A DNA stretch of 8,380 bases from a virus (IMGVR_UViG_2684622669_000009:1-8380), one strand, 5' to 3'. Counted from the first letter of the stretch, positions 1 through 8,231 are shown. The notes: a model not told the origin generated them from the sequence alone. Program-made: numbers and translations.

Positions 1-232
1 CCAATTTATCCCTCAGGATCCTAAAGCGGTACTTTGGCGTCCAGACTATGGGATATTTGCAACGCCAATATACATGTGATGAACTTCTGTAAAGCCCCAT
101 GTCAGTTTGTTTCCTTTTACTTGTGGTGAGTAAGCAGAGATATTCCGACATGGGCATTCTTCAGGCTATAGCCTTACAGGATCAATCACCACCTCCCCAG
201 GAGGTGGTTTAGGGATAACAACAAAAAAACCC

Positions 233-256
233 GCAGTTACGCGGGCTTAGAGGTAC
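233..256 (-). terminator. Intrinsic (rho-independent) terminator downstream of the lysis cassette
   Basis: Stem cccgc (240-244) / gcggg (251-255) with a 6-nt loop; on the minus strand it is followed by a run of 7 T (plus-strand A-run 233-239). Lies about 165 nt downstream of the Rz stop. Confidence 0.6.
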
Positions 257-420
257 TTTACTGCTTTTACGTACAGGCTGTTGCCAGACGCGAAATCATT
301 CCCACTCAATTATTTACGACAACCATAACCAATTGAGTGATAACATTTTTCCAAAACCTCATTTTTCCCATACCGTTTTATATACCGTCACCGGAAATCA
401 GTACCATGAAAAATGCCATG

Positions 421-2377: not shown

Positions 2378-3472
2378 ATGTTCATTACTAACACTGATGT
2401 TTTTACCTTTCTTTTCTTAGCTATATCATTAATAGCGGCTATTTTTGTCAAAAAAATAATCCCATCAACCGTAATAAATGTACATAATGACACAACCTTA
2501 GAAGGTTTAAGAGGCATTGCATGCTTATTTGTATTTATAAATCATGCTTCATATAGCATTCATCACATCGGAATACAAAATTGGCAAATGATGGGTGATT
2601 CACCATATACCGGGAGAATGGGAGCTTTCGGAGTGGAGATATTTTTCTGTTTGACAGGGTACTTGTTTGCAAAAAAGATTCGCAAAGGAGATATAGACTT
2701 GTCATTTTTTGAAAAAAGAATCAGGAGGCTTGCTCCTGCATATATATTTGTATCATTTGTAGTTTTTATATATTTCGTATTTATGAACTATAATGTTATT
2801 CGTGGTTACTACGATATATCGGCTTTGATCCAACAAATTTTCGGATTCGGTTTCTTTGGGAATAGAATATCTGTAAACGGTATGGTGGATACATCATTGA
2901 ATGCTGTTGTGTGGACGCTTCCTTATGAATGGAAGTTTTATGCAATAGTCCCCTTCGTAGCGGCTATTTATAAGCTAAGAAGGCCTATCCCTCTACTTAT
3001 CGCATTTGGAGTAGCGACTGTTTGCATTGACTATTGGTCGAAAATGTTCTTGTGGGGGTTTTTCGTAACCGGATTCATTGCTTCATTCGTTGGTATTTTA
3101 GAAAATAGATATCTTAAGTATATCTCATATTACATAATGCTATTCCTATTTGCATATGCATTTAAGGGATCATTTGATATTCATGGTTTCCAAATGTTTG
3201 TCGTAGTATCTTTATTTTTCATAACATTTATTGCGGCAAGACCTAAGATATTCTCCATAGGAGTATTTGTTTACCTTGGAACTATAAGCTATAGCATTTA
3301 TCTACTACATCAGGTAGTTACAACGGTTTTCATGAAATTAATCTCTGGGGTAATCGATCTACTTACCATAAATATGTATGAATACTTAATGGTCTGCATC
3401 ATACCAATATCACTTACAATTTACTTATCATCTATTAGTTACAATAAAATAGAGAAAAAATTCATCAGATAA
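2378..3472 (+). CDS. Acyltransferase family 3 integral membrane protein; probable O-antigen / surface-polysaccharide O-acetyltransferase (lysogenic conversion gene)
   Basis: 364 aa, hydrophobic throughout (about 10 TM helices), with AT3-type motifs LEGLRGIACLFVFINH, FGVEIFFCLTGYL and SYSIYLLHQ. Markedly AT-rich compared with its neighbours (estimated by eye at roughly 30% GC). Opposite strand to the flanking phage genes. Confidence 0.85.
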   Translation: MFITNTDVFTFLFLAISLIAAIFVKKIIPSTVINVHNDTTLEGLRGIACLFVFINHASYSIHHIGIQNWQMMGDSPYTGRMGAFGVEIFFCLTGYLFAKKIRKGDIDLSFFEKRIRRLAPAYIFVSFVVFIYFVFMNYNVIRGYYDISALIQQIFGFGFFGNRISVNGMVDTSLNAVVWTLPYEWKFYAIVPFVAAIYKLRRPIPLLIAFGVATVCIDYWSKMFLWGFFVTGFIASFVGILENRYLKYISYYIMLFLFAYAFKGSFDIHGFQMFVVVSLFFITFIAARPKIFSIGVFVYLGTISYSIYLLHQVVTTVFMKLISGVIDLLTINMYEYLMVCIIPISLTIYLSSISYNKIEKKFIR

Positions 3473-3519: not shown

Positions 3520-5742
3520 TCAGCCGTTCGAGATTTTACCAGATATCCTAAATCTTAGCGCTCCAGATTTGATGTAATTGTATGTGAGGAAAGTTCTTGT
3601 GCCATCAGATGCCACGGCATAGAACTGAATCTTTGTGAAGTCTGTAGCTCCTGTAGGAATAAATCCAATAACATCGACAGTTCCTGCTGGTAATGCATTC
3701 CCAAGCGCTGTCCTGACCTCTATCTCGCATCCTGCCCCTGGATAAAAACCAAGCCCTCTGGGAAGGGTGATTGTGATATTTCCTGTACCGCCTGTTGTTC
3801 CTGTAACATTTATACTTACATGCAAATCAACATGCTCACCATCCCTCCTTGCAGTATATGTGCCAGTTTGTGTTACAGCTGTAGTATCATCGAAACCGAT
3901 ACTTCCAGTTAAGGCCGCATTAACCTGTAGTTCAGATTTAAATCCGCATATATTATTTCTCCACGGAATCGTTGGTTTATCACCATCCCATGTGATGGGT
4001 TGCGATGAAAAATGAGTTGTTTTATTACCAAGAAATTTTAAATTAAACAAGTTGTTATTTATATCGCCAACAAGATAAGCAGCATAAAAAGGTAGCCCTC
4101 CAGTAACAACCTGTTCATTGTGAGAAGTTACAACAGCATCGTGTATAGTATTGCTGGTTGAGCGAATCACAAACCCATAACCACCATTATCCATCGTTGC
4201 GCCAGAATCTGGATCTAATTTTGCAACGCTATCAGCATATGGTCTATAAAGTGTATGCCCACCAGATATCAATTCAAAACCGATTAACATTTGCCTGTTA
4301 GGATATAAATCATCTGATGTTTTAGGATGTCCCCATGGATGAGGATCTACAAGAGTATTCGATCCGGTACCAGAAATGCGAATGCCTATTGGATAATCTA
4401 TCGTTATAGGGTTTACAAAATGGCTATCACCAGTGCGAATCCACAATCCAACTACCGACTTGCTTTCCCATTTCATAATTCCAAAGCAACTATGCATAAT
4501 TGCGATTTCATAACCTATTGAAGGAATACCACCAATATCTGCCCCGCCTCTTAGCATCCCCCACGTTTCCATCTGACCTACCGTAACACCAGCTATATGC
4601 GTCATCAGAACACCAATTGCATCAACATGTTGGTAATATACGGTTCCCCAGTCAGTATTCTGCGTATGTCGTATGTGAATTCGTGGAATATAGGTACGCT
4701 TATCGCTATATGTGGTCGTTGGTGACATAATGTGATAGACAGCCTTATAGCTATTTCCTGCGGCATCTACTGTTTGGAAATCACCAGTTGGATCTGCCCA
4801 TATAACACCAGTCTGCAATACGCTAAGCCCTGCCAGATGCTTAATTGATGATTTAACCCGATAGACATTTGGCAGCCAAACTGTTTTGTTATTCTCATAA
4901 GCATAGTCATACGCATCCTGAATCATCACAGCCCAGTCAGTTTCTCCTGGATGATTTGCATAGAACTGCTCAGGTGTAACAAACTGCGAACGCGCAAATA
5001 GATCGTTTAAATCTGTTTGCACTGTACCGCTGGACATCGTGCCTATCAAACAACTTCCTGTTGGCTTCGCTAGTTCTATGAGAACATCAGCAGCAGAACC
5101 AGATTCTGGTAGTAGCATGATTGGGTTACCATTATCATCCATGCCTACAATTTTGTTTTTTCTCAACTCAACTGGTGGTAACTGCGGGATCATTTCTGCC
5201 GTGCGTAACGTTCTGCTAAAGAGAAGATCCGTATGCGAAGTGTTTCCAGCGCTAAGTGAGTCAGCATAATTCTTTGTCGCTGCATCCTGAGGGCGAATAG
5301 GGTCTCTTAAGTTTCTAATGTAGTTGTTTAGTGCGTCGTAATAATTAGCCACGAACGACGGCTTTCGCAGAACAAGGCTAAACCAACTACGCACTTGCTG
5401 GATCAGCATCGTCAGCTTATCGAACGCGTCTTCATGCACCTCAGCGAAAAACTTTCCCTGATTGCGCAGATCAGTTTCCTGCGTAACCGGTAGCTCTCGT
5501 GATATAGAAATCTGATAACCGTTAGCCAACGCCTTCGACAGAATTACATTACCGCCGTTATATCCTCCAGCTCCGGTAACTGTATAATCAGTATCAAGAG
5601 TCAGCACAGCAATATTTTCGTTAAGGTCAGAGACCTGAACAACCAAGTCGGATTTTTTGAAAATACGGAAGGTATACGGAAATGATGTCGTAACACCGTT
5701 ACCGGTGTATTCGTTGTGGTCAACTTCGGTTGAGACCGTCAT
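3520..5742 (-). CDS. Tailspike / tail fiber protein with putative polysaccharide depolymerase (beta-helix) receptor-binding domain
   Basis: 740 aa. The N-terminal ~150 aa (YTGNGVTTSFPYTFRIFKKSDLVV...LTLDTDYTV) follow the pattern of the T7 gp17 N-terminal particle-attachment domain. A downstream segment TPEQFYANHPGETDWAVMIQDAYDYAYENNKTVWLPNVYRV matches the signature at the start of pectate-lyase-type beta-helix tailspikes. Gly/Thr/Ser-rich C-terminus. GGAGA Shine-Dalgarno 6 nt before the ATG at 5742. Confidence 0.88.
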   Translation of the reverse strand: MTVSTEVDHNEYTGNGVTTSFPYTFRIFKKSDLVVQVSDLNENIAVLTLDTDYTVTGAGGYNGGNVILSKALANGYQISISRELPVTQETDLRNQGKFFAEVHEDAFDKLTMLIQQVRSWFSLVLRKPSFVANYYDALNNYIRNLRDPIRPQDAATKNYADSLSAGNTSHTDLLFSRTLRTAEMIPQLPPVELRKNKIVGMDDNGNPIMLLPESGSAADVLIELAKPTGSCLIGTMSSGTVQTDLNDLFARSQFVTPEQFYANHPGETDWAVMIQDAYDYAYENNKTVWLPNVYRVKSSIKHLAGLSVLQTGVIWADPTGDFQTVDAAGNSYKAVYHIMSPTTTYSDKRTYIPRIHIRHTQNTDWGTVYYQHVDAIGVLMTHIAGVTVGQMETWGMLRGGADIGGIPSIGYEIAIMHSCFGIMKWESKSVVGLWIRTGDSHFVNPITIDYPIGIRISGTGSNTLVDPHPWGHPKTSDDLYPNRQMLIGFELISGGHTLYRPYADSVAKLDPDSGATMDNGGYGFVIRSTSNTIHDAVVTSHNEQVVTGGLPFYAAYLVGDINNNLFNLKFLGNKTTHFSSQPITWDGDKPTIPWRNNICGFKSELQVNAALTGSIGFDDTTAVTQTGTYTARRDGEHVDLHVSINVTGTTGGTGNITITLPRGLGFYPGAGCEIEVRTALGNALPAGTVDVIGFIPTGATDFTKIQFYAVASDGTRTFLTYNYIKSGALRFRISGKISNG

Positions 5743-5898
5743 GTTAAATCTCCAGATAGTCGCAGCACCCGTTGCGCCGCATATCCGGTTATTCTATTAC
5801 CTGAAAAACCATATATGGATAGGTAACCCATAAATACGAACAGATATTACCTTTCAGGTAATTTGCAAAACGTGCTGGATAGCAAACAAATTATTTGA

Positions 5899-5918
5899 TA
5901 CTGTATATTCATACAGTT
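5899..5918 (+). promoter_or_regulatory. LexA (SOS) box overlapping the putative promoter of the 85-aa gene / Bro-N operon
   Basis: TACTGTATATTCATACAGTT matches the E. coli LexA consensus TACTGTATATATATACAGTA at 17 of 20 positions, with the CTGT-N8-ACAG core intact. It lies 20 nt upstream of the ATG at 5938, with a possible -10 TATATT (5904-5909) inside the box. Confidence 0.6.
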
Positions 5919-5937
5919 ATTGCATGGAGAAGATAAG

Positions 5938-6195
5938 ATGCAGCAGTATCACTATCCACTGGAAGACGGATTTACCGAAAGGATTCACACGCCGGGAGGC
6001 GTCAGGTCACTGGTGGAGGGATCGCACTTGATGAAATTACTCCGGGATCTCGATAAGGATGGATTTAATGTCGATGGCCCACTTACCGAACTGACTGCAC
6101 TGATTAACTACGTCACCAGCTCACAGATGTCTATGCAGGAGCTGCAAACACATCTCGACTATTGTGCCGAACAATTACGAAAGCAAACCAGATAA
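5938..6195 (+). CDS. Small protein (85 aa) paralogous to the C-terminal domain of the downstream Bro-N antirepressor; candidate SOS-induced antirepressor or modulator
   Basis: ATG at 5938 preceded by GGAGAAG. Aligns over its whole length with the last ~78 residues of the Bro-N protein (shared YxxPLxxG[FY]xxxIH[ST]PxGV...SxLMxLL...DGxxVxG...ELT...QTHxxY). The ORF-track start at 5920 is a TTG; the ATG with a Shine-Dalgarno is preferred. Confidence 0.7.
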   Translation: MQQYHYPLEDGFTERIHTPGGVRSLVEGSHLMKLLRDLDKDGFNVDGPLTELTALINYVTSSQMSMQELQTHLDYCAEQLRKQTR

Positions 6196-6333
6196 GGTTT
6201 GCAATTACCAAGCGGAGTGCTTATATTTACCTTTGCGGTAAATTTACATCGCACTCCTCTTGTGCCATAGTGATCAGGCACTGGCAAAATCCAGTGCCGG
6301 GATTGGCGTCCCGGATTACTAAAAGGCGCATTC

Positions 6334-6353
6334 ACCGCGCAAGCGGTTTTTTT
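6334..6353 (+). terminator. Candidate intrinsic terminator / attenuator between the 85-aa gene and the Bro-N gene
   Basis: 5-bp stem accgc / gcggt with a GCAA tetraloop, followed by a run of 7 T (6347-6353). The short stem suggests partial termination. Confidence 0.45.
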
Positions 6354-6510
6354 ATGCGTATAGCACGGTCACATTCGTATTATGGTGGGCTGTGTGGGGG
6401 CACCGAAAGGTGCGCCGGGTCCTTTTAGCCGGTTACGCCAACCCTGCACAGTTCACCACCAACCGATTGGCGTCGGTAGTGGTGATTAACCAGACTAAAA
6501 GGTAACCACT

Positions 6511-7197
6511 ATGACTGCTAACGTAACCCCATCTGTTTTTCATTTTGAATCAGAAGCAACCATTCGAGCCATTGTTATTGATGGAAATCCTTGGTTTGTT
6601 GCCAAAGACGTTATTAAAGCTCTTCAACTGACAAACCCCACTATGTCAATAAAATCTCTTGATGATGATGAAAGGGCTAAATTTAACTTAGGCCGTCAAG
6701 GCGAAACCAATATTATCAACGAGTCAGGCCTCTACACACTGATCCTCCGCTGCCGCGATGCGGTGACACCAGGCACTATCCCCTACCGCTTTCGTAAATG
6801 GGTTACAGGTGAGGTTCTTCCTCAGATCCGCCGCACCGGAAGTTACATTAAAAACTCGCTCCCGCAGGAAGAACGCATAAAGATGGTTGCCGACCAGGTA
6901 GCCAACGCCACAGCATCAGCAGTGATGCAGGCAATGAAGATAGAGAACAAAACCTACAGCGCCCCACTGAAGCCCGGCTACCGCAGTCTGATTCATTCTC
7001 CGTCTGGTGTTCTCGGCTTGACGGAGAACTCACTGCTGATGAATCTGCTGAACCGGTTACAGGAAGACGGGCACGACGTATCGGGCGCGGCGGCGGAGCT
7101 GACCACCATGTTCTGCTACATCGTCGGTGTGAGCAAATGCCTGCGTGATATCCAGACACACGCGGAGTACATCAACGACAAAGCAGGGTTCTTCTGA
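6511..7197 (+). CDS. Bro-N domain phage antirepressor-like protein
   Basis: 228 aa. N-terminal ~110 aa fit the Bro-N pattern (FHFESEATIRAIVIDGNPWFVAKDVIKALQL...ESGLYTLILRCRD). The C-terminal ~78 aa are paralogous to the upstream 85-aa protein. Confidence 0.85.
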   Translation: MTANVTPSVFHFESEATIRAIVIDGNPWFVAKDVIKALQLTNPTMSIKSLDDDERAKFNLGRQGETNIINESGLYTLILRCRDAVTPGTIPYRFRKWVTGEVLPQIRRTGSYIKNSLPQEERIKMVADQVANATASAVMQAMKIENKTYSAPLKPGYRSLIHSPSGVLGLTENSLLMNLLNRLQEDGHDVSGAAAELTTMFCYIVGVSKCLRDIQTHAEYINDKAGFF

Positions 7198-7204
7198 CGG
7201 CGGC

Positions 7205-7223
7205 GGCACAGGGATGTGCCTTT
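7205..7223 (+). terminator. Weak candidate terminator hairpin after the Bro-N gene
   Basis: Stem ggcaca (7205-7210) / tgtgcc (7215-7220) with a GGGA loop, followed by only TTT then AAA. A weak terminator at best. Confidence 0.3.
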
Positions 7224-7313
7224 AAATAATTCTGTACAGATTGCAGGTGAATAGCTTACTATTACCTCACGGGTGATCCATAGCGATTAGGCACCGATAC
7301 AGGAGGAGCCCAC

Positions 7314-7346
7314 ATGAGAAAATTTGACGAGTACGAAGGCGTTTAA
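7314..7346 (+). CDS. Mini-ORF (10 codons, MRKFDEYEGV) with a strong Shine-Dalgarno; candidate leader peptide
   Basis: AGGAGG (7301-7306) lies 7 nt upstream of the ATG at 7314; stop TAA at 7344-7346. An in-frame stop just upstream rules out a longer ORF. A hairpin follows 18 nt downstream. Tiny ORFs are often chance, so confidence is low. Confidence 0.25.
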   Translation: MRKFDEYEGV

Positions 7347-7364
7347 CATTCGGATAGTTTAATG

Positions 7365-7387
7365 ACGGGGCCATTAGGCCCCGTTTT
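7365..7387 (+). terminator. GC-rich hairpin (terminator or attenuator) immediately upstream of the 179-aa gene
   Basis: Perfect 8-bp stem acggggcc (7365-7372) / ggccccgt (7377-7384) with a 4-nt loop, followed by a short T-run (TTT then CAT). The downstream gene's Shine-Dalgarno starts only 8 nt after the hairpin, so the hairpin must lie in that gene's 5' leader unless the gene is read through from upstream. Confidence 0.45.
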
Positions 7388-7405
7388 CATGTCTGGAGAC
7401 AGTTT

Positions 7406-7945
7406 GTGTTAAGTGAAGAAATGCAATTTGCCATGGCTGTAGCTCAAATCGTAAGTGCAGTCGCGGTTTCGCTTGGCTTGTTCATAGCTATCGCTACTAT
7501 TATTTATAATGTAAATACAGCGAGAAAAGTACACACTTCAGTATTCCTTGGTGAAAGCAGGTTTGATGTAGATTATAAGAAAGGCCTATCTACTATGCGC
7601 CGCATTCACGAATCGAACAAATCATTCCGCTCTTATATGTATCCAAGCAATGGGCAGGCTGATCTTACGGATGAAGAAAAGACAGAGAAGAGAGAAATAA
7701 TTTACTGTCTAGGTTTCTACGAACGCATGGCTGTGAGCGTGAAGCGGAAAACTTATGATGAGACCATGATTAAGGAAGTATTTTACAGCTCCGTTGTAAA
7801 TAACTATCAGATTGCGCTACCTCTTATACAAGCCATTAGAGAAAAAGAAAACATAAACACATATTTTAAAGAATATGAATGGTTGGCCACACGATGGAAG
7901 GATTGCCCATTGAAGGATAAATCCCCGTGGTACAAGTTTTGGTAA
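7406..7945 (+). CDS. Membrane-anchored protein of unknown function (179 aa); candidate superinfection-exclusion / abortive-infection effector
   Basis: GTG start at 7406 with GGAGA 6 nt upstream (alternative ATG at 7421). One N-terminal TM helix (FAMAVAQIVSAVAVSLGLFIAIATIIYNV) then a ~140-aa charged soluble domain rich in K/E/Y. Lower GC than its neighbours (estimated by eye at roughly 40%). Followed directly by a strong terminator. I recognise no family for it. Confidence 0.7.
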   Translation: MLSEEMQFAMAVAQIVSAVAVSLGLFIAIATIIYNVNTARKVHTSVFLGESRFDVDYKKGLSTMRRIHESNKSFRSYMYPSNGQADLTDEEKTEKREIIYCLGFYERMAVSVKRKTYDETMIKEVFYSSVVNNYQIALPLIQAIREKENINTYFKEYEWLATRWKDCPLKDKSPWYKFW

Positions 7946-7966
7946 GCCCGCGCTGCGGGCTTTTTT
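7946..7966 (+). terminator. Intrinsic terminator after the 179-aa gene
   Basis: Stem gcccgc (7946-7951) / gcgggc (7955-7960) with a 3-nt loop, followed by a run of 6 T (7961-7966). Begins one nucleotide after the TAA stop. Confidence 0.75.
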
Positions 7967-8038
7967 GTGGACGAAACAAAAGTCAGTGCTACACTCATTG
8001 ACGCCACATTGAGGTGGCTTATAGATGGAAATTTCACA

Positions 8039-8200
8039 ATGAAAAAAGCATTTGCTGCACTGTTCGTTTTGTTGTCTCTGGTAGCTTCAACTCAGGCTTT
8101 TGCCGGTCGTTGTCAGCACGACAGCGATACTGCTGCTGACGGCTCCCGCTGCGGTGGGCGTTCTGCGGACTCCCGCCCGGGCGGCGGTGGCATTCGTTAA
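8039..8200 (+). CDS. Possible small secreted peptide (53 aa) with an N-terminal signal peptide
   Basis: ATG at 8039. MKKAFAALFVLLSLVASTQAFA looks like a Sec signal peptide with an AFA cleavage motif; the predicted mature part (~31 aa, Gly/Ser/Arg-rich, two Cys) is low-complexity. No clear Shine-Dalgarno, GC-rich region with ORFs in several frames, and a 5-codon upstream ORF (8025-8042) overlaps the start as ATGA. May be spurious. Confidence 0.3.
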   Translation: MKKAFAALFVLLSLVASTQAFAGRCQHDSDTAADGSRCGGRSADSRPGGGGIR

Positions 8201-8222
8201 AAACAAGGCCGCGAAAGCGGCC
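8197..8222 (-). terminator. Intrinsic terminator on the minus strand, downstream of the partial minus-strand gene
   Basis: Perfect 6-bp stem ggccgc (8207-8212) / gcggcc (8217-8222) with a 4-nt loop; on the minus strand it is followed by TTGTTTTTAA (plus 8197-8206). Sits 10 nt after the candidate minus-strand stop at 8232-8234. Confidence 0.6.
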
Positions 8223-8231
8223 TGTGACATG

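Follow-up and report, generated by a model that had tools for sequence, protein, structure and literature searches.

The stretch of DNA analysed here (IMGVR_UViG_2684622669_000009:1-8380, a viral sequence of 8,380 nucleotides, hereafter the window) carries a plus-strand block in which a LexA box is followed by a gene for an 85-amino-acid (aa) protein, a gene for a Bro-N protein, a mini open reading frame (ORF) and a gene for a 179-aa membrane protein. The window represents the right arm of an E. coli prophage similar to phiV10 and epsilon15 (genus Uetakevirus), and the region is the accessory arm of phiV10-like E. coli prophages, located between the tailspike gene and the virion genes. In a preliminary description, the block had been presented as one SOS-controlled transcription unit. 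All features named there were found where it had placed them, and the four ORFs are indeed co-oriented; with a probability of roughly 0.7, we read the block as co-oriented modules that would be regulated separately, namely a LexA-controlled ant gene, an antisense-controlled Bro-N gene and a mobile DUF4760 cassette.

RNA genes were scored against Rfam gathering scores, and protein domains against Pfam and PHROG. Sigma-70 promoters were scanned for uniformly over the window with a cut-off of at least 9 of 12 hexamer matches, and operators were searched for with the pattern TTACC-N5-GGTAA, allowing one mismatch. The features of the block were as follows.

5847-5861: operator-like palindrome TTACCTTTCAGGTAA, an exact TTACC-N5-GGTAA in the divergent tailspike/ant control region.
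5899-5918: LexA box (SOS operator) TACTGTATATTCATACAGTT, overlapping the inferred ant promoter.
5938-6195, plus strand: ant, a small antirepressor of the SPC32H type (85 aa), assigned by homology.
6214-6257, plus strand: long hairpin in the ant 3′ untranslated region (UTR) (-22.5 kcal/mol, z = -5.2), followed by UCUUGUG and enclosing the operator at 6227-6241.
6227-6241: second exact palindrome TTACCTTTGCGGTAA, directly next to the -35 hexamer of the isrK-type promoter.
6243-6271, plus strand: predicted sigma-70 promoter of the isrK-C4-Bro-N unit, TTTACA-17-TGcCATAGT, with a predicted start at about 6278.
6278-6353, plus strand: IsrK-like small RNA (Rfam RF01394, 77.9 bits against a gathering score of 50).
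6378-6463, plus strand: C4 antisense RNA (Rfam RF01695, 77.7 bits against 45, full length 1-87).
6467-6473 (b2) and 6495-6502 (a2), plus strand: C4 target sites, exactly complementary to the C4 loops; a2 overlaps the Bro-N Shine-Dalgarno sequence.
6511-7197, plus strand: Bro-N antirepressor, whose C-terminal 80 residues form a second Ant-like domain.
7205-7223, plus strand: hairpin directly after the Bro-N stop codon (-10.1 kcal/mol), a weak terminator with a poor U-tract and a UUUAAAU tail.
7233-7262, plus strand: candidate cargo promoter TGTACA-18-TACTAT (8 of 12 matches).
7262-7276: operator-like site TTACCTCACGGGTGA, overlapping the -10 of the candidate cargo promoter.
7314-7346, plus strand: leader mini-ORF of 10 codons, MRKFDEYEGV, preceded by a strong Shine-Dalgarno sequence, AGGAGG.
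7364-7387, plus strand: GC-rich hairpin followed by U4, an attenuator-like terminator (-18.4 kcal/mol, z = -3.9).
7406-7945, plus strand: DUF4760 membrane-anchored helical protein of 179 aa (PF15956).
7944-7968, plus strand: intrinsic terminator (8-base-pair stem, T6), a conserved flank shared with relatives carrying other cargo.

The preliminary description had held the LexA box to be the only strong promoter-like element of the block. In the sigma-70 scan no site appeared at the LexA box, for which the best manual fit was TAGCAA-18-TATATT (inferred; -35 at 5880-5885, -10 at 5904-5909, 8 of 12 matches), and two sites were flagged between the 85-aa gene and Bro-N, TTGCAA-17-TATATT (6199-6227) and TTTACA-17-TGcCATAGT (6243-6271). 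The hexamers at 6243-6271 aligned with those of the Gifsy-1 isrK promoter (TTGACA/TATATT) and of its Stx, APSE and SfV equivalents, with diverging flanks, and TTGTGCCATAGT was unchanged in 9 Uetakevirus loci. For Gifsy-1, the isrK promoter was found experimentally to drive anrP transcription, and the IsrK terminator is leaky (PMC4825925); in the Gifsy-1 lysogen, IsrK and STnc1160 (a C4 homologue) were highly transcribed under all tested conditions (PMC7067206). Because the hexamers at 6243-6271 are conserved with those of the mapped Gifsy-1 promoter, and because IsrK and STnc1160 are abundant in the lysogen, it is very probable that Bro-N is transcribed from a promoter of its own, independently of SOS, and that its gate lies at translation.

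With this conserved promoter and the candidate at 7233-7262 inside the block, the genes probably do not share one promoter, and the block was not inherited as a unit among relatives. Tyrion and phiV10 have ant together with Bro-N, BUCT711 has ant and cargo without Bro-N, and DUF4760 occurs without ant in Yersinia, Pantoea and Enterobacter. Between ant and isrK, inserts were found in TL-2011b (1.1 kb, on the opposite strand) and in Kp4865-1. The ant gene of SPC32H, epsilon15 and BUCT554 forms a unit by itself, closed by a bidirectional terminator; the homology of this layout to the window ends exactly at the ant stop codon (6195), and 6196-8200 is therefore material added relative to the one-gene layout. 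The internal promoter, the separability of the modules, the inserts between ant and isrK and the occurrence of the cassette elsewhere all conflict with a single operon. If the block were nevertheless read from one LexA-repressed promoter at 5880-5918 as a single messenger RNA (mRNA) from ant to DUF4760, with hairpins that only attenuate it and an end at 7944-7968, this would accommodate the common orientation of the genes, the short stems or poor U-tracts of the internal hairpins and the recurrence of the order ant, Bro-N, DUF4760 in Klebsiella prophages. Such a transcript is highly improbable in view of the internal promoter homologous to a mapped one, of a scan that flags an internal site and nothing at the LexA box, of ant being monocistronic in SPC32H and epsilon15, of the opposite-strand insert in TL-2011b, and of a DUF4760 cassette that occurs elsewhere without ant or LexA boxes; moreover, the window holds no second LexA box.

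Within the first module, the LexA box was the sole exact CTGT-N8-ACAG in the window (core at 5901-5916) and fitted the 20-nucleotide (nt) consensus at 17 of 20 positions. The core was unchanged in 6 Uetakeviruses, and the region upstream aligned with SPC32H, epsilon15 and phiV10. When a second LexA box was sought near Bro-N and DUF4760, only a GC-rich one-mismatch match inside the C4 gene was obtained, and this was rejected. The 85-aa ORF, preceded by GGAG 7 nt before its start, encodes a protein with 85.5% identity (tblastn) to the product of the SPC32H gene annotated 'ant', and it matched PDB 5D50 chain E, 'Anti-repressor protein' (phmmer E = 6.4e-46, residues 2-84), and PHROG 450 (E = 1e-46). 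Judged by this homology, the 85-aa gene is the orthologue of SPC32H ant. The control of this gene by LexA, as originally proposed, is supported, the site being orthologous to the SPC32H ant operator. SPC32N, the clear-plaque sibling of SPC32H, differs from it here by one base, a mutation from C to A that maps to the ACAG half-site at window position 5914. This change, described by Kim and Ryu in 2013, reportedly renders Ant constitutive. In Salmonella phages of the SPC32H type, Ant is made once LexA has cleaved itself, and it breaks up the tetramer of the phage repressor Rep (reviewed in PMC7380047, PMC9638917). By the mechanism shown for the SPC32H orthologue, DNA damage would here remove LexA, the 85-aa Ant would be made, and Rep would be taken off its operators.

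Hairpins were also found at the same place of the ant 3′ UTR in the Klebsiella and Tyrion relatives, with other arm sequences. One fixed-register pairing for all relatives was tried and failed in Klebsiella, where the stem is shifted by one base, and likewise in Tyrion, where the arms differ; separate folds still gave a hairpin in each. Its role as a weak terminator or a stabiliser of ant mRNA is suggestive only.

The 315-nt gap before Bro-N, in which the preliminary description had overlooked two non-coding RNA genes, holds the IsrK-like small RNA and the C4 antisense RNA. At IsrK, RF03163 (c4-a1b1) scored 45.0 bits, slightly under its gathering score of 46.7; the RNA contains the decoy sites b1 (6303-6309) and a1 (6319-6326), and the hairpin at 6334-6353 (5-base-pair stem, U7) is its terminator. 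C4 folded at -45.6 kcal/mol (z = -4.7). Its loop a′ (CCUUUUAG, 6421-6428) is the exact complement of a1 and a2, CCTTTTAG pairing with CTAAAAGG at 6319 and 6495, and its loop b′ (ACGCCAA, 6435-6441) pairs with TTGGCGT at b1 (6303) and b2 (6467). In 5 other lineages (phiv142-3, APSE-8, Klebsiella, Tyrion and ETEC4090), a′/a1/a2 and b′/b1/b2 covaried three-way, and this joint change of a loop and both of its targets is the mark of a functioning RNA-RNA interaction that determines specificity. As established by complementarity and covariation, C4 masks the ribosome site of Bro-N and IsrK carries decoys. The order isrK, C4, Bro-N recurs in Gifsy-1, Stx phages, SfV and APSE phages.

From the predicted promoter at 6243-6271, transcription would yield IsrK where it stops at the leaky terminator (6334-6353), and C4 RNA and Bro-N mRNA where it reads through. 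Loops a′ and b′ of C4 would then pair with a2 and b2, leaving the Bro-N ribosome site masked, while a1 and b1 in IsrK would act as decoys. In phiV10, a 3-nt deletion removes the TTTACA -35 of the isrK-type promoter (at about 3005-3015 of the examined locus), and the Bro-N gene is shortened; the isrK/Bro-N module of that phage may be decaying. A 37-aa ORF with a GTG start (6392-6505) overlaps the C4 gene and stops 6 nt before the Bro-N ATG; it is labelled 'ash family protein' in ZX5, and Pfam gave nothing for it. This ORF could be a coupling ORF like icd or orf45, or a spurious reading of the C4 gene.

The exact complementarity of a1 and b1 to the C4 loops also bears on a partial coupling of the first two modules through RNA, in which LexA-controlled transcripts from ant, made upon SOS induction, would read through the 3′ UTR hairpin to the IsrK terminator and the a1/b1 sites of the resulting ant-IsrK RNA would titrate C4, a feed-forward on Bro-N translation. 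Between the ant stop codon and IsrK there is only the hairpin with the poor U-tract UCUUGUG, the spacing of about 82 nt between ant and isrK is kept in E. coli, Klebsiella and Tyrion, and IsrK of Gifsy-1 activates translation of the orf45-anrP mRNA in trans (PMC4825925). The junction is, however, not universal, given the inserts in TL-2011b and Kp4865-1 and the lack of isrK in SPC32H, and the conserved 3′ UTR hairpin may end most ant transcripts. This coupling is put forward tentatively; it is compatible with separately regulated modules, to which it would add a layer, and, if true, ant-IsrK read-through would be of interest as it would deliver C4 decoys.

The Bro-N domain of the second protein scored 72.3 bits against PF02498 (gathering score 25.6), and the protein matched PHROG 130, 'anti-repressor Ant' (E = 2.6e-56). 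Its residues 147-224 align with the 85-aa Ant at 37% identity (E = 3e-18), and its C-terminus, like the 85-aa Ant, matches chain E of 5D50 (E = 2e-13). The whole protein has 82% identity to ZX5 ORF4, overexpression of which lowered lysogeny about 1000-fold (PMC9782041). The 'antirepressor pair' of the preliminary description is therefore real, on the strength of the shared Ant domain and the ZX5 homologue. Since Bro-N bears a second Ant-like domain, it probably targets the same Rep, and the block would thus hold two Ant domains, separately controlled and probably aimed at one repressor. The DNA encoding the Ant-like domain of Bro-N (window 6964-7219) was 96% identical to 5449-5705 (minus strand) of the TL-2011b locus, where the counterpart is the 3′-terminal part of another gene, an 'anti-repressor Ant' of P22 type beside an Arc-like repressor; this identity indicates domain shuffling among antirepressors. 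The hairpin at 7205-7223 is kept in relatives, with a compensatory change from A-U to G-C in Klebsiella.

Palindromes matching the operator pattern were enriched in the window, with 5 matches against 0.28 expected. The exact site at 5847-5861 was conserved in all relatives, and the homologous site of epsilon15 is annotated 'protein_bind: repressor'. In the exact site beside the isrK promoter, the half-sites were invariant and the N5 spacer varied across 9 relatives, as expected of a protein site. The remaining three, at 7262-7276, 2327-2341 and 2080-2094, carry one mismatch. In phiV10, 14 palindromes were counted against 0.72 expected, located in the divergent rep/cro-like region and in the majority of the other promoter regions between genes; in the scanned part of epsilon15 (17000-39672), there were 11 against 0.35 expected, 5 of which coincide with 'protein_bind: repressor' features of the depositors. 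From this placement, we infer that Rep binds next to the ant/tailspike control region, on the -35 side of the isrK promoter and over the start of the cargo promoter. The palindromes at 2327-2341 and 2080-2094 lie upstream of an O-antigen acyltransferase gene, and the spread of the palindromes over these phage genomes recalls the scattered C1 operators of P1.

The third module would consist, in order, of a weak promoter with an operator, a translated 10-aa leader, a terminator-like hairpin, the DUF4760 gene and a terminator. In Klebsiella prophages, the element aligned with the candidate cargo promoter was TTGACG-16-TAAGAT with the exact operator ATTACCGTATTGGTAAT, and the same promoter and operator element stood directly after ant in phage BUCT711, which is without Bro-N. 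The window and SCEC020022, the other DUF4760-bearing E. coli prophage examined, are without 7 nt in the spacer of the candidate promoter (7241-7256) that occur in TL-2011b, phiv142-3 and ETEC4090, and the deletion changes which -35-like hexamer fits the spacing. By comparison with relatives, a variable cargo slot was delimited at about 7275-7944, homology with TL-2011b and phiv142-3 resuming at 7945. The slot is occupied by a YafO-family toxin in TL-2011b, small ORFs in phiv142-3, a 211-aa protein in ETEC4090 and a DUF2335 protein in BUCT711, and by nothing in Tyrion; Pfam gave nothing for the other cargo proteins.

Such exchange of unrelated cargo among relatives (YafO toxin, DUF2335, the 211-aa protein) would also be expected if the mini-ORF and DUF4760 were an ordinary lysogenic-conversion moron with its own promoter, active in the uninduced lysogen and independent of SOS and Rep, and the operator-like site at 7262-7276 were non-functional. 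The mismatch in this site and the finding of the cassette at moron positions in other prophages, and also at chromosomal sites, speak for this possibility. It appears unlikely, as Klebsiella, TL-2011b and phiv142-3 retain better or exact operators overlapping the -10/+1 region, and an exact operator also accompanies the cassette in Enterobacter.

Each of the 16 distinct DUF4760 loci examined, which come from eleven genera and lie within prophages as well as elsewhere, had the mini-ORF ahead of the DUF4760 gene, with 10-15 codons and a strong ribosome site, and the peptides end D-E-[FY]-[DE]-G-[FVLC]; the identity of the DUF4760 proteins in these loci goes down to 42%. The settings of the cassette include a lambda-like tail region in Yersinia, an island in Pantoea and the plain chromosome of Enterobacter. 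Over the six core codons, the entropy at positions 1, 2 and 3 was 0.14, 0.21 and 1.25 bits, respectively, against 1.76 bits just past the stop codon. This 3-periodic low entropy points to clear purifying selection on the peptide, and by this measure the mini-ORF is not a chance occurrence. Directly ahead of the DUF4760 start, most of the 16 loci have a comparable GC-rich hairpin, whose stem sequence differs between loci and which as a rule has a U-tract behind it. Window positions 7349-7356, right after the mini-ORF stop codon, can also pair with the DUF4760 ribosome site. When an antiterminator alternative to the hairpin at 7364-7387 was sought by eye, no convincing conserved candidate was obtained. 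In ETEC4090 (locus 2501-2660), the mini-ORF segment is 100% identical over 85 nt and stands ahead of the 211-aa cargo gene, whose product is without a Pfam match, the hairpin being replaced by another exact TTACC-N5-GGTAA site; the mini-ORF is here joined to a different cargo, which places a recombination joint directly after it (at about 7359).

The leader and hairpin would form a further gate on DUF4760. It is conceivable, though doubtful, that the mini-ORF encodes a new leader peptide whose sequence, together with the hairpin 18 nt downstream, gates DUF4760 transcription, translation or both across Enterobacterales, as a sensory leader or attenuator not described before, and that it stands here at the end of a two-antirepressor cascade. 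In such a cascade, SOS-made Ant, possibly with ant-IsrK RNA sponging C4, would unlock the second antirepressor and then the cassette.

The 179-aa protein was assigned to PF15956 (DUF4760) with 107.5 bits against a gathering score of 25 over residues 19-164 of 179, and to PHROG 2284. It has an N-terminal transmembrane helix, in agreement with its earlier reading as a membrane protein, and its AlphaFold2 model (predicted local distance difference test score 85.8) consists of one long N-terminal membrane helix and a helical bundle. Foldseek searches of this model against PDB and BFVD returned nothing significant, the top PDB match being to EDS1/PAD4 helical domains (E = 0.5, TM 0.49), which was not interpreted. 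For the four proteins of the block, PADLOC-DB gave no match at E <= 0.1 and NCBIfam nothing useful. The last 73-77 nt of the DUF4760 gene (7868-7944) persist, unannotated and at 89-97% identity, in about 50 E. coli genomes without the rest of the gene. Two of these loci were inspected: in the one that keeps the 53-aa gene found downstream in the window (see below), the remnant lies directly upstream of it, and a dinD gene (DNA-damage-inducible protein D) is near the remnant in both.

Taken as separately regulated modules, the block would be tied together by Rep, whose operators flank or overlap the promoters of the second and third modules. Because Ant inactivates Rep, SOS most likely reaches both of these modules indirectly, by a predicted cascade from LexA to Ant to Rep, and the co-induction of the downstream genes foreseen in the preliminary description may come about through this Ant-to-Rep cascade; read-through from ant may make a minor contribution. 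Several points weigh against this arrangement. The promoter calls in this phage are all computational or by homology, the identity of the operators is based on depositor annotation and genome-wide placement, and the 8.4-kb window does not include the rep gene, which is present in the relatives phiV10 and ZX5. With 8 of 12 matches, the window's version of the cargo promoter is weak, and the operator that goes with it has a mismatch at one position. Furthermore, no strong U-tract occurs between the ant stop codon and the IsrK terminator, and the three internal hairpins look leaky, so that LexA-dependent read-through into IsrK and beyond is physically possible. The folds reproduced each of the four hairpins as they had been described at the outset, bearing out the internal ones as weak or partial terminators that may allow some read-through and the final one as a terminator with an 8-base-pair stem and U6 (7944-7962).

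Parts of the plus-strand block were matched in 1025 of 5426 complete E. coli genomes (about a fifth), and the version with the DUF4760 gene in about 41 complete E. coli genomes. The surrounding genes and other features of the window were as follows.

Minus strand: spanin, endolysin and holin genes.
221-337, minus strand: match to Rfam Trp_leader (32.7 bits, below the gathering score of 41), adjoining a terminator-like hairpin near the prophage end; probably a chance match.
2378-3472, plus strand: O-antigen acyltransferase (Acyl_transf_3).
3520-5742, minus strand: tailspike, after which the plus-strand block begins.
8039-8200, plus strand: gene for a 53-aa signal-peptide protein (PHROG 14503, 'membrane associated protein', E = 2e-40).

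The 53-aa gene is preceded by TTGACG-15-TATAGA and followed by a bidirectional terminator at 8206-8223. Many relatives have it as a conserved border of the cargo slot, and it is apparently an accessory gene in its own right, outside the range of the unit first proposed.

The proposed new SOS operon thus largely resolves into known biology. A temperate podovirus would stack two inputs on one repressor, a small Ant under LexA and a Bro-N::Ant fusion under C4, and hang accessory cargo behind operators of the same repressor. For annotation, the proper name of the 'hypothetical' 85-aa gene in phiV10-like prophages is ant, and IsrK and C4 should be entered in the gap before Bro-N. For work on SOS regulons, a LexA box beside co-oriented genes is not proof of an operon. 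As far as we found, there is no earlier analysis of both antirepressor circuits acting on one Rep, the ZX5 paper treating only ORF4. The literature search gave a single paper that mentions DUF4760, no informative account of it and no description of the leader peptide, which is apparently undescribed and the one such item in the region; it offers a small, testable lead for an uncharacterised protein family.

The arrangement had at first not been recognised as a described system. The first and second modules are instead members of described systems, in a phage group that is well known. The SPC32H Ant-Rep lytic switch, reportedly the subject of work by Kim and Ryu in 2013 and by Kim and colleagues in 2016, is the counterpart of the first module. 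Both have an 85/86-aa Ant (85% identity), whose gene diverges from that of the tailspike; they also share the LexA box, with the base that is changed in SPC32N, and the operator palindrome upstream. They differ in that a bidirectional terminator comes directly behind ant in SPC32H, whereas the window adds about 2 kb of modules that include a second Ant-like protein.

The immI region of P1 and P7 comprises the c4 antisense RNA, icd and ant, with C4 co-transcribed with its target and a repressor operator at the promoter. The second module shares with it the C4 loops a′ and b′ that pair with a2 and b2 at the ribosome site of the gene leading to the antirepressor, the upstream a1/b1 copy, the predicted co-transcription of C4 with its target and the repressor operator at the promoter. 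The antirepressor of the window, however, is a fusion of Bro-N with an Ant domain where P1 has Ant1/2, and it resides in a podovirus that has another antirepressor, under LexA control, adjoining. The isrK-orf45-anrP locus of Gifsy-1 (Hershko-Shalev et al., 2016; PMC4825925) resembles the second module in its IsrK with a leaky terminator, the C4/STnc1160 homologue downstream, the Bro-N-type antirepressor and the homologous promoter hexamers, with about 72% nucleotide identity in the RNA genes only. In Gifsy-1 this locus follows antQ in the late/nin region, whereas in the window it follows a LexA-controlled ant and has a Uetakevirus Rep operator.

The LexA-controlled antirepressors of the Gifsy and Fels prophages (Lemire et al., 2011) and Tum of coliphage 186 (Shearwin et al., 1998; both as cited in PMC7380047) likewise connect LexA cleavage to an antirepressor that inactivates a non-cleavable repressor. 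They belong to another protein family, without a family-level match to the proteins of the window, which PHROG and Pfam place with the SPC32H-type Ant and with Bro-N. Lastly, the DUF4760 cassette is like prophage morons and leader attenuators in being self-contained, with a leader ORF, a terminator-like hairpin and a terminator, and in its moron positions; unlike the leaders of amino-acid attenuators, its leader has no run of one codon, and the conserved part is an acidic-aromatic C-terminus.

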